Shown: positions 23,701 to 26,700 of the stretch, piece after piece
How positions within the stretch are numbered: position 1 is the first letter of the stretch
Layout: every line of letters begins with the position of its first letter
Assembly (NCBI RefSeq): GCF_013315695.1
Contig: NZ_CP054353.1
Origin: Escherichia coli
GTDB taxonomy: Bacteria; Pseudomonadota; Gammaproteobacteria; Enterobacterales; Enterobacteriaceae
Length of the DNA stretch: 64,000 nt
Strand: one strand, 5' to 3'
Made by a program: the position numbers

Positions 23701-26700
23701 TGCAATTGTGGTTATTGCAGAAACAACAAAAAAGAATAAAAACAATAAAATCCGGGGTGTGTTGCCCGGACAAAACAGTTTTCTGATATTCATCGGAGTA
23801 TATCGACAACATTATTATGAAGAGAACAGGATAATAAAAATCAGAAATTATCTGTAAAACAAATAACAGACAACTCTGCAGTAATAGACTGCAGGGTATT
23901 TCTGTTTAATTGCAGAAGATATTCAATTATCTTAATTACAGAATATACGCAATTATCGTTCAGGAGCAGTGTCGTCAGAAGTTATAAGTCATACCAAGCA
24001 TGATGGGTTGGTGACCATAAAGAACCAGCTAAAGCTGTACTCCTGTACTCAGTATATACACGACGACTTAATTTCGTTTTCTCTATTTCATGCTCCACTC
24101 TTTTTACCGTTTCACTAACATCAGAAACATTTTCAATCACAAAACTCTTACGTTCATAAATAAGCCTGCTTAATGTATTTATATCTAAAAATTTCGCATC
24201 AAAAGAATCAATCTGTACTGTTTTTTCTTGTACTGACATCTTCTTTTCCTGGCTGGTATGGCAAGTGACGGAGACAAGAGAAACGTTTTAAGCTCAGTTA
24301 TCTCCGCCATCACTTTCCACGAATGACAAGTAATTTTGCCTATTTTAAAACCATGCAAAAGGCAGGGTAAAAGGAGAAAATTCGATCGAATCGATCGACA
24401 AAATCGATCATACATGATGAAGATTTTTTATCGAATCCATAAAAATAGTGACAGCTAACCGGCGTTGCAGGAACAGTCAGAAATGGGCGTTTGGGAAAGA
24501 GCCATAGCACTACGTCGTCGCTGACATAGAGGAACTGTGCTTTGTTGATAAGATCCTTTATACGGCAACCAATCCATTGGACAAAAGATGAACTACGTAA
24601 TCACCGGGTTCTCACTGACGAAATACAGAAGTTAATGACACAACTGTGCCATGTACCTTGTACAACAGCGGTGGAAAGCTCTCAGAACAATGGAATTGCA
24701 GAAAGGTGTTAAAACGATGAAAGCCTTCATACCCAAATCGAATGTAAGAACGGCAGTAAAGACTGAATTGCGTAACCTTGCAGTAGCTCGAGTATTACAC
24801 TGCATAGTGTGCAGGGTTATCTCCCATTGAGAAAATATCGGCGCCAGCGAATAACGTCACCTTAGATGTAGCAGTTGCCAAATAGTGACTCAAGGGCGGG
24901 CTTACCGCATACACTGACACTTAGCGGATCGACAGAATATTATTAGCAGATCATCACTGAACGCTACGTAATTATCGTAATAAAGGCTTTTTCTGGCTAC
25001 CAGGAAGACCTGACATGGCTCTGCTCTGGAACCAGGCCGCAGGAAGCATCAATCTGGAGTTTATCAGCTACTGGAATTCCGGTGTATTGGCAGCCCCTGA
25101 TAATCACCTGACCCACGAAGAGCGCTCTGCTTTGCAGAAACTCTGGGGCGGTTTGGAGACAGGAGATGCCATTTAACGATTATAGGACGTTCTGATAAAG
25201 CCCATGATTTTACCTCCGCCTTAATTAACTGTTTTCTTTCTGAAGAAAAAATTGTCTGGTGGCAATCAGGTGGCATTTTCCCGGATCCCTGGCCCGCTAA
25301 TATATCCCGGCTGAACAGACGATTAACGCGATATTGCAAATATGGCATCTGAATCGATCATGATTTGGCGGCATCCATCTCCGTTCACAGTTTGGCATGC
25401 TTCCGATCATTGATTGGCATCCAGCCAGTCACTCCGGGAATTAACTCTTTTCACCGCAGTCTCCATTGCCGTGTTTAAACCAATGGAGACGTCAATGTCC
25501 AAAAAGAGAATATCCAGGAGCACTATGGATACCTGTTTTAAGATCCTTCAGCTCAAGTTCGACCAGAAGCTGGCTAACCGTTGTATCGGACTTGCAAAAC
25601 ACCAATGGGGATTGATCTCTATTTTGCGACACAGACGCATTATCAATACATCGATGGTGCGATCAAATACCTCAGTGGTCTCACCGTGGATCAAATCCAG
25701 CAATTGCTCACAGATTAAGACTCGTCGGGAGTTTTGAGCCAACGCCAGCAGTAACCCATATTCACCTTGAGTGAAATCTACAGGCTGTTGATGAGCATCA
25801 ACCAGCACGTAACGGTCCGGGATCAAGTGTCCAGCCGTTAAAAAAACCACTCTACTACCCTGCTCGACCTAAGCCTCGGCGTTCAGCCGCCTGAACGGGT
25901 ATGGCAAGGGTGAAAAGAAACAGCATCCCCACAGTACCGACCAGACGACAGGATGATGCTGGAACAGAAAGCATTCGCACCTCCCTTAGAATTAGACAGT
26001 GCGTACAGGATACGTAAGACAGGGTGACGGGGCGGCGATAAACTCTATTTACAAAGCTGAAAATTTTCTGACGATGAAAAACTATTCAACAAGGTTATCT
26101 GAGGCGTTAAAATAACCAGCTCGATTAACGACTAACTTGAGGTGAATATGAATTTAAAAAATATAATTTTAAGTACTGTTTTATCAATCGCTAGTTGTCA
26201 TGCCTTGGCTGTAGGTAATTCTCAAATAGCGCTATCTAACCTTCATGTGGAAAACACCCCAAGTGGGACGAAGGCAATTGTGGGTTATGCTGAAAATAAA
26301 TCAAACTCTGTTGTCAAAAATGCTTATGTAAAATTTAATCTTTTAAAAGATGGAGTCGTTATCGGTCAAACAATCGACACAGCATCCAATCTTGAACCAG
26401 GCCAGAAGTGGAAAATACAAGCCTTCATTAACACCTTTAACGGCAGCCCTGACTCATTCAAAGTCACTGAAGTGAAAGTAGTTAACTGAGTGTGCCACTG
26501 ACTGCCGCTACAAAAATTATATGGAGGTCCTGGGAAAGGGCAGCTCTGCACCAGGCCGCCATAAAGGAATCAAATACTCTCGTTGTTTATGACACCGAAG
26601 AACTTTTATGTGAGATTACCCAGCGGCCCCGAGTTTCCCCTGAAGTCGGTGAGTTGCAGTTTCACCGTGCGGATCGCGTAGTGGACATTTCGCACAAGTC

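Follow-up and report, generated by a model that had tools for sequence, protein, structure and literature searches.

The 64,000-nucleotide stretch of Escherichia coli DNA analyzed here (contig NZ_CP054353.1 of assembly GCF_013315695.1; hereafter, the window) is an E. coli pheV pathogenicity island. In it lie two clusters of GATC-containing repeats, cluster 1 at 24381-24411 and cluster 2 at 25343-25437, which the original prediction had joined under one direct-repeat motif, TGGCAT-N5/6-CGATCAT, in a stretch poor in open reading frames (ORFs). Both sequences quoted there were located in the window, each well above chance frequency, and the stretch is indeed ORF-poor, being occupied by pseudogene debris. 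The shared motif, however, did not hold, as cluster 1 contains no TGGCAT; only the GATC tetranucleotide is common to the two clusters, which are two unrelated features parted by the debris of a transposase gene and of a CobW pseudogene. The joint account developed below, which assigns cluster 2 to one end of an IS21-family insertion sequence (IS) and cluster 1 to a Dam-sensitive operator in the promoter module of an adhesin-gene slot, is considered on the whole somewhat probable.

The features of cluster 2 and of a second copy of the same kind in the window are as follows:

25335-25602, plus strand: left-end remnant of an IS21-family (ISSso4-like) insertion sequence, beginning at the terminal TG.
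25343-25437, plus strand: four IstA-type direct-repeat units (25343-25365; 25366-25392; 25393-25414; 25415-25437).
25525-25602, plus strand: first 26 codons of istA (tblastn with the IstA of locus L004, 81% identity over residues 1-26), the remaining gene being deleted.
54591-54647, plus strand: second stub of an IS21-family left end, 57 bp, with two perfect 23-bp units at 54598 and 54621.

Cluster 2 is a decayed four-unit array. Its first and third units, TGGCATCTGAATCGATCATGATT at 25343-25365 and TGGCATGCTTCCGATCATTGATT at 25393-25415, carry GATCs at 25356 and 25405, respectively; the second (25366-25392, 27 nt) is degenerate with its GATC mutated to GTTC, and the fourth (25415-25437) is degenerate and devoid of GATC. 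The tandem pair that had been described at 25341-25420 consists, therefore, of real units that are not adjacent, with the degenerate 27-nt unit between them. A true 23-bp tandem is formed by the units at 54598 and 54621, which that description did not include. The excess of the motif over chance, in turn, was borne out by four occurrences of TGGCAT-N5/6-CGATCA in the window against 0.02 expected; the Tandem Repeats Finder, when run on the window, did not score the decayed array at 25343-25437. The copy at 25335-25602 is 86% identical to the left end of the intact element at locus L004 over 273 aligned positions (BLAST alignment 25343-25592), one unit having been lost through an L1/L2 fusion and L4 being missing, and the stub at 54591-54647 is 96% identical to the same left end over 55 bp (54593-54647).

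The distribution of the repeats was assessed with 161 bp around the second copy as a query against 5426 complete E. coli genomes. A core of ~57 bp (window about 54589-54647) was found in 1322 of them, in chromosomes and plasmids alike and with as many as 33 copies in one genome. The matches lie in or beside such unrelated genes as rhsC, various transposase genes and a phage capsid gene. They all share one right-hand end base, as is typical of an IS terminus. In rhsC (L004) and in the phage capsid gene (L005), the core stands exactly at the gene interruption and is followed by istA and istB. The intact element of L004 (3501-6139) lies inside rhsC with a 6-bp target duplication, GGTATG, on both sides and has TG...CA termini, six units at the left end (TGGCATCTGAATCGATCGCAGTT, TGGCATTCGAATCGATCATGATT, TGGCATCCATCTCCGATCACAGTT, TGGCATCACAATCGATCACGATT, TGGCATGCTTCCGATCATTGATT and TGGCATCCTGCCAGTCACTCCGG) and three similar units in inverted orientation at the right end; the Tandem Repeats Finder scored this element with a period of 23 and 4.3 copies. 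Its IstA reached 285.8 bits with the NCBIfam model NF033546 (cut-off 160) and its IstB 257.8 bits with NF038214 (cut-off 200). The relative combines all the marks of IS21 membership that can be read from sequence, namely TG...CA termini with a target duplication, direct repeats of ~23 bp at both ends, and IstA with IstB.

The ends of IS21 are composed of multiple direct repeats (L1/L2, R1/R2) spaced 23 bp apart, each of them with two conserved boxes ~10 bp (one helical turn) apart that are contacted by the helix-turn-helix (HTH) motifs HTH-1 and HTH-2 of IstA, and two complete repeats are needed for integration (PMC10122671). The TGGCAT and CGATCA boxes fit this two-box description, and from the structure and biochemistry of IS5376, within the IS21 family, we infer that the window repeats would be bound by IstA. 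The ISSso4-like relative shares with the IS21 and IS5376 ends the TG...CA termini, the pair istA and istB, the direct repeats 23 bp apart at both ends and the two-box units. It differs from them in the number of units (six on the left and three on the right, where two or three are usual) and in the GATC present in almost every unit, and the window copies differ in being truncated relics.

By these sequence comparisons, cluster 2 (25335-25602) is almost certainly the dead, inert left end of an ISSso4-like element of the IS21 family, which is an already known kind of feature; it is taken as inert because the element is truncated after 26 istA codons and its units have been lost or mutated. Nothing of substance weighs against this reading; the window copy has neither a right end nor a target duplication, and its history is reconstructed from relatives. 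Plasmid-type iterons, or parS/parC partition sites bound by Rep or ParB/ParR, were among the options first proposed, and a regular array of ~23-bp units as well as the plasmid-like and IS debris of the island would suit them. This explanation is rejected as hardly credible, since the annotation shows neither rep nor par genes for several kb around the two window copies and since the array belongs to istA-istB elements, whose terminus it forms in genes that have nothing to do with one another, the copy in rhsC showing TG...CA ends and a target duplication; cluster 1, for its part, stands at a fixed distance from the start codon in 73 of 78 loci (see below), which is the behavior of a promoter and not of an origin. 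The reading of the repeats as protein-binding arrays is thus retained in the general sense and dropped for iterons and partition sites: the cluster 2 motif is the terminal repeat of a known IS family, IS21, the very outcome that the original prediction had named as its refutation, and cluster 1 fits, as a prediction, the option of a Dam-dependent switch. The identification of the IS21 end is in itself routine and guards against a false iteron call.

A side observation concerns the position of GATC in the intact element, where eight of the 12 GATCs of L004 lie in the terminal repeats, one per 23-bp unit, and the interior has 1.7 per kb. The IstA sites of an ISSso4-like element will carry N6-methyladenine in a Dam-positive host. 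Dam control of transposase binding operates in IS10 and IS50, with GATC inside the transposase-binding end. The ISSso4-like element is similar to IS10/Tn10, IS50/Tn5 and IS903 in having GATC within the end sequence bound by the transposase, but those elements have one or two GATCs, whereas the IS21-family element has one in nearly every repeat. We know of no report on Dam control of any IS21-family element, and methylation is unmentioned in PMC10122671 (zero occurrences of 'methyl'). By analogy, the GATC of the IstA repeats might couple the transposition of ISSso4-like elements to the hemimethylated state that follows replication, which is put forward as a possibility.

Cluster 1 is embedded in a different set of features:

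24381-24411, no strand assigned: GATC triplet, a proposed Dam-sensitive operator, with GATCs at 24384, 24393 and 24406 (spacings of 9 and 13 bp).
24394-24408, minus strand: palindromic 15-mer ATCG-N7-CGAT, which is flanked by G and C and so gives two GATCs 13 bp apart.
24336-24449, minus strand: conserved promoter/regulatory module of the Hra/Hek/Tia adhesin-gene slot, with 72-92% identity in other islands.
24342-24371, minus strand: predicted sigma-70 promoter from a consensus scan (-35 TTTACC at 24371-24366, spacer of 18 bp, -10 TAAAAT at 24347-24342).
23982-24239, minus strand: 85-aa orphan ORF that fills the adhesin-gene slot and is annotated as a hypothetical protein.

The sequence of cluster 1, ttcgatcgaatcgatcgacaaaatcgatcat at 24381-24411, holds three GATCs within 26 bp, and the whole window is GATC-poor (170 observed, ~248 expected), with three GATCs within 35 bp at only two sites, cluster 1 and 5913-5933. 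The latter triplet (GATCTGCTG GATCTGCTGCG GATC) is read as part of a coding sequence on the minus strand, near its 3' end, and has the look of an ordinary codon repeat. In cluster 1, the second and third GATCs (GATC2 and GATC3) read G-ATCG-ACAAAAT-CGAT-C at 24393-24409, and the pattern GATCG-N7-CGATC occurs once in the window versus 0.03 expected from shuffles. It is very unlikely that the cluster is a low-complexity run due to chance, or the hairpin of an intrinsic terminator (TCGATCG-ATT-CGATCGA with a T-rich tail on the minus strand). A scan does flag a terminator at 24398-24382 on the minus strand, but the low expectation of the core pattern and a conservation well above that of the flanks speak against both versions; moreover, the hairpin is not conserved, its T-rich tail and stem geometry being absent from the insertion lineage described below, where GGTTGTAACC comes next.

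The conservation of the module was followed with a 511-bp query against E. coli genomes, in many of which the window segment 24336-24449 recurs at 72-92% identity directly upstream of Hra-family outer-membrane protein (OMP) genes (L006-L011), these being annotated as Tia, outer membrane protein or porin-family protein. The OMP islands have the same layout of integrase, phosphoethanolamine transferase, OMP gene, module and integrase remnant, and their OMPs, which are 66-68% identical to the annotated Tia of L007, are taken on sequence similarity to be of the Hra/Hek/Tia/Hes family. Seven divergent E. coli copies, when aligned, all keep the three GATCs unchanged, and two of them carry a 9-bp insertion that adds a fourth GATC. 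An unbiased sample was provided by 80 metagenome loci picked by OMP protein similarity alone, of which 78 had enough upstream DNA. At least three GATCs were present between -130 and -90 of the ATG in 73 of these 78, at positions -116/-103/-94, -117/-104/-95 or -126/-113/-104/-95, and the pair of GATCs 13 bp apart was present in 74. Across 44 unique upstream sequences, the 12 GATC columns averaged 0.42 mismatches versus 6.2 in the other columns from -170 to -43, i.e., they were about 15-fold less variable, in a set that amounts to some three lineages of one species, so that such counts are not independent and overstate the number of events. The bases immediately flanking the core on both sides vary in more than 10 of the 44 sequences, and the GATC cluster is retained even where the upstream DNA of the lineages compared shows no more than 65-72% identity. 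Strong conservation is seen in one further block, the second most conserved of the 44-sequence alignment, namely TTTACC-N18-TAAAAT, the predicted promoter.

The surroundings of the cluster are depleted of the same tetranucleotide. None of the 80 Hra-family OMP coding sequences (L094-L173, about 740 nt, three lineages with ~70% nucleotide identity) contains GATC, and no GATC was found outside the cluster in 45 of 46 unique upstream regions of 260 bp, so that the promoter cluster is the only Dam target in about 1 kb. Cluster 1 is real, non-random, positionally fixed and under constraint, and it is very probably a selected protein-binding site.

In the window, the gene that the module serves elsewhere has been exchanged. 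A comparison of window 23982-24285 with L006-L011 revealed a cassette swap, in which the 740-bp adhesin gene is replaced by an unrelated segment of 280 bp between identical flanks, the cassette starting directly after the Shine-Dalgarno sequence. This variant occurs in at least 482 complete genomes, with an ORF of 85 aa here and of up to 122 aa or more elsewhere. The 85-aa ORF, likely the target of the promoter module in the window, has no Pfam or NCBIfam match, and its homologues are limited to E. coli hypothetical proteins of 47-149 aa. Weak homologues, with 67% nucleotide identity, were noticed on plasmids. The interval that separates the ORF slot from the phosphoethanolamine-transferase gene holds a hairpin (CCCTGCAG...CTGCAGGG, about 23877-23900) and, next to it, a 26-bp tandem duplication (TTAATTGCAGAAGATATTCAATTATC / TTAATTACAGAATATACGCAATTATC, 23906-23957); the two are also found behind the OMP gene in L006 and L007 and together are probably the OMP terminator plus an unexplained repeat.

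The layout of cluster 1 recalls the OxyR half-sites of known Dam-dependent switches. Half-sites were scored on 10 positions of ATAGxTxxxAxCTAT, for which 0.29% of the window 15-mers reach 7/10. The validated GATC-containing sites of agn43 (GATC-II/III), gtr A and gtr C score 8/10 each, and the functional opvAB sites 7-8/10; the first half-site of the window scores 7/10 and that of two other Hra lineages 8/10. The second half-site, which lies 22 bp nearer the promoter and holds GATC1, scores 4/10 in the window, 5/10 at 22 bp in lineage C, and 8/10 at 31 bp in the insertion lineage (B). From start to start, the half-sites are 22 bp apart where there are three GATCs and 31 bp apart where the 9-bp insertion has added a fourth; this shift from two to three helical turns matches the contiguous and extended modes of OxyR binding at gtr and opvAB, and a dimer-of-dimers spacing (15+7 or about 15+17 bp) was found in the cluster 1 forms. 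With the predicted promoter, the half-sites are centered near -66 and -44, which is the usual place of a LysR-type activator abutting the -35 hexamer; the opvAB site OBS-D is at -43.

A single pattern search, GATCG-N7-CGATC, captures the half-sites of agn43 and of P22 gtr (A and C) together with the Hra-family loci. In P22 gtr, GATC1/2 and GATC3/4 are each 13 bp apart inside OxyR half-sites with 17-bp spacers, and their methylation blocks OxyR binding. The likeness to gtr and opvAB extends to the 13-bp GATC pairs within an OxyR half-site (gtr A and C), to half-sites upstream of and abutting -35, to functional half-sites that score only 7-8/10, and to alternative half-site spacings of 22 and ~32 bp. 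Those systems, however, have four GATCs in two separated groups and mutually exclusive OxyR registers, whereas the GATCs of cluster 1 are gathered compactly in 26 bp, or in 35 bp where there are four of them, and a further, distant GATC site was not found within 260 bp upstream.

At agn43 (flu), which encodes an autoaggregation and adhesion factor of the outer membrane and is carried by mobile islands, three GATCs are likewise clustered in the regulatory region, and the pair GATC-II/GATC-III of K-12 has the same G-ATCG-N7-CGAT-C layout, with 13-bp spacing, as window 24393-24409; this layout is methylation-sensitive in agn43. Unlike cluster 1, which is predicted to lie upstream of -35, the OxyR site of agn43 is at or downstream of the transcription start and acts as a repressor site, and its GATC-I is spaced by ~20 bp rather than by 9 bp. 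The two have no homology outside the core, and the switch at cluster 1 is a predicted one. The window region was compared with the K-12 yeeP-isrC-flu region as a possible agn43 regulatory region and rejected as such, the homology not going beyond the core ATCGATCG-N5-ATCGATC, and the 'GTP-binding' pseudogene of the window was rejected as a YeeP-type GTPase pseudogene, being a CobW C-terminal fragment.

From these parallels we infer which protein binds cluster 1, its sensitivity to methylation, the sign of its effect on expression and the phase variation that would result. In the proposed mechanism, the module drives an Hra/Hek/Tia-family outer-membrane adhesin gene in other islands and would drive the 85-aa minus-strand orphan ORF in the window. 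GATC2 and GATC3 would form a LysR/OxyR-type half-site centered ~66 bp upstream of the predicted transcription start, with GATC1 in an arm of the weaker half-site, 22 bp nearer the -35 hexamer. A LysR-type tetramer, most likely OxyR, would bind the unmethylated site and so block Dam, and methylation of the cluster 1 GATCs by Dam would block the protein; the competition after each replication would then set up ON and OFF states that are inherited along lineages, in the manner of agn43, gtr and opvAB. By analogy with these systems, that cluster 1 is Dam-sensitive and phase-variable is given only slightly less than an even chance, and the naming of OxyR as its binding protein is more tentative.

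The main rival is an ordinary operator of a transcription factor that recognizes ATCGAT-type palindromes, with graded regulation to which Dam is irrelevant. It would account for a constraint that spans the whole 27-bp core, beyond the GATC tetranucleotides, and for the weakness of the second OxyR half-site in the window (4/10), and ATC-N9-GAT / T-N11-A is a generic LysR-type box. Against it stand the three or four GATCs retained in all copies, an insertion variant that adds a GATC and not some other sequence, and the absence of GATC from the adjacent 260 bp in 45 of the 46 unique sequences and from the coding sequence. As the host is Dam-positive, N6-methyladenine will stand in the major groove of both half-site arms, and the identical G-ATCG-N7-CGAT-C layout is methylation-sensitive in gtr. 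The methylation-indifferent operator is therefore regarded as rather unlikely.

The presence of a pap operon elsewhere in the window and the sequence GATCGA(A)TTTT, which resembles the GATC-TTTT context of Lrp sites, brought in a Pap-type Lrp/PapI/Dam switch as well. Switches of this type rely on a PapI-like co-regulator and on a pair of GATC boxes separated by 102 bp. The GATC spacings of cluster 1, in contrast, are 9 and 13 bp and not ~102 bp, and no PapI-like gene adjoins it, which makes a Pap-type switch highly improbable. A 65-aa ORF at 54301-54498 (minus strand), without RefSeq annotation, lies in an AT-rich stretch between the end of an IS66 element (about 54252-54272) and the 57-bp IS21 stub; it was tested as a PapI-like regulator and discarded, having no Pfam or NCBIfam match.

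Several points weigh against the Dam/OxyR operator itself. The consensus-scan promoter occurs at chance frequency, with two found and 1.9 expected. Were the promoter instead TCGATA-16-TATGAT, the GATCs would fall between -10 and about +16, in an agn43-like repressor geometry. The second half-site of the window has the low score given above, and the adhesin gene is gone, so that any switch here would govern the orphan ORF only.

The module was also met outside E. coli. In Yokenella regensburgei (L035, 4738-4804), promoter and GATC module are 84% identical over 69 bp and stand upstream of a different gene, which encodes a 154-aa protein with a predicted signal peptide. A scan for ATCGATC-N3-AAAATCGATC across genomes gave 80 matches and was informative only in Enterobacteriaceae, most of the matches belonging to unrelated phyla and being chance-like. 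Palindromes resembling ATCGATCG-N-AAAATCGATC were seen in other contexts in Kluyvera, Buttiauxella and an Enterobacteriaceae metagenome-assembled genome (L056, L064, L071); together with the Yokenella site, they hint at a wider class in Dam-positive enterobacteria. In one island type (L009-L011, ~904-1800, minus strand), the neighbor of the adhesin gene is an HTH-WYL-WCX regulator of the defense-associated kind, beside dnd/dpt phosphorothioation or AAA ATPase genes; considered as a LysR-type regulator next to the OMP gene, this 'HTH regulator' was set aside and is probably unrelated to the adhesin gene.

The remaining features between the two clusters are the following:

24677-24864, plus strand: decayed C-terminal remnant of an IS3-family transposase, within debris that extends over roughly 24540-24870.
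24973-25352, plus strand: CobW C-terminal/GTP-binding protein pseudogene, so annotated by RefSeq in identical DNA and truncated by the IS21-family end.

The IS3-family remnant matches the 3' end of the IS3-family transposase gene of L008 at 69% nucleotide identity and has a stop-riddled translation, and 'integrase' pseudogenes are annotated at the equivalent position in L006, L007 and L011. Several human isolates of E. coli carry the 2.4 kb around the clusters in their chromosomes at 100% identity. In the matching DNA of NZ_LR898874, the island adjoins a tRNA-Phe gene and begins with an integrase and hypothetical genes, which are followed by a phosphoethanolamine-transferase gene split by an IS66-family element, the 85-aa hypothetical gene, the CobW C-terminal/GTP-binding pseudogene, a winged-helix pseudogene, an FxLYD gene, further IS debris and then the pap operon, with Iha and Sat beyond. 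An Rfam search of 23000-27000 returned a sub-threshold chance match only.

To our knowledge, the characterized Dam-dependent switches of enterobacteria are only a handful, i.e., pap-like fimbriae, agn43, gtr, opvAB, std and sci1. The proteins Hra1, Hek, Tia and Hes, which act as adhesins, invasins or autoagglutinins, occur in enterotoxigenic, enteroaggregative, Shiga toxin-producing, uropathogenic and meningitis-associated E. coli. No report of Dam/OxyR control or phase variation of hra1, hek, tia or hes was found in the literature searched, two primary Hra1/Hek papers being outside its coverage, so that a prior description is possible; in one study of enteroaggregative E. coli, an unexplained switching of autoaggregation was ascribed to Ag43 or 'another phase-variable protein'. 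It is suggested, with rather less than even confidence, that the Hra/Hek/Tia genes, and any cassette that fills their island slot, such as the 85-aa ORF here, may be under an undescribed Dam-dependent switch of the OxyR type (LysR family), with a compact operator of three to four GATCs by the -35 hexamer, in a portable module that genes for other exported proteins, in genera such as Yokenella, would have acquired as well. If this is true, the switch class gains a new member, which has been orphaned in the window by replacement of the adhesin gene. Confirmation of the operator would mean that the expression of Hra, Hek, Tia and Hes is heterogeneous within clonal populations, which would bear on adherence and autoaggregation assays, on the choice of vaccine antigens and on the phenotypes of dam mutants.

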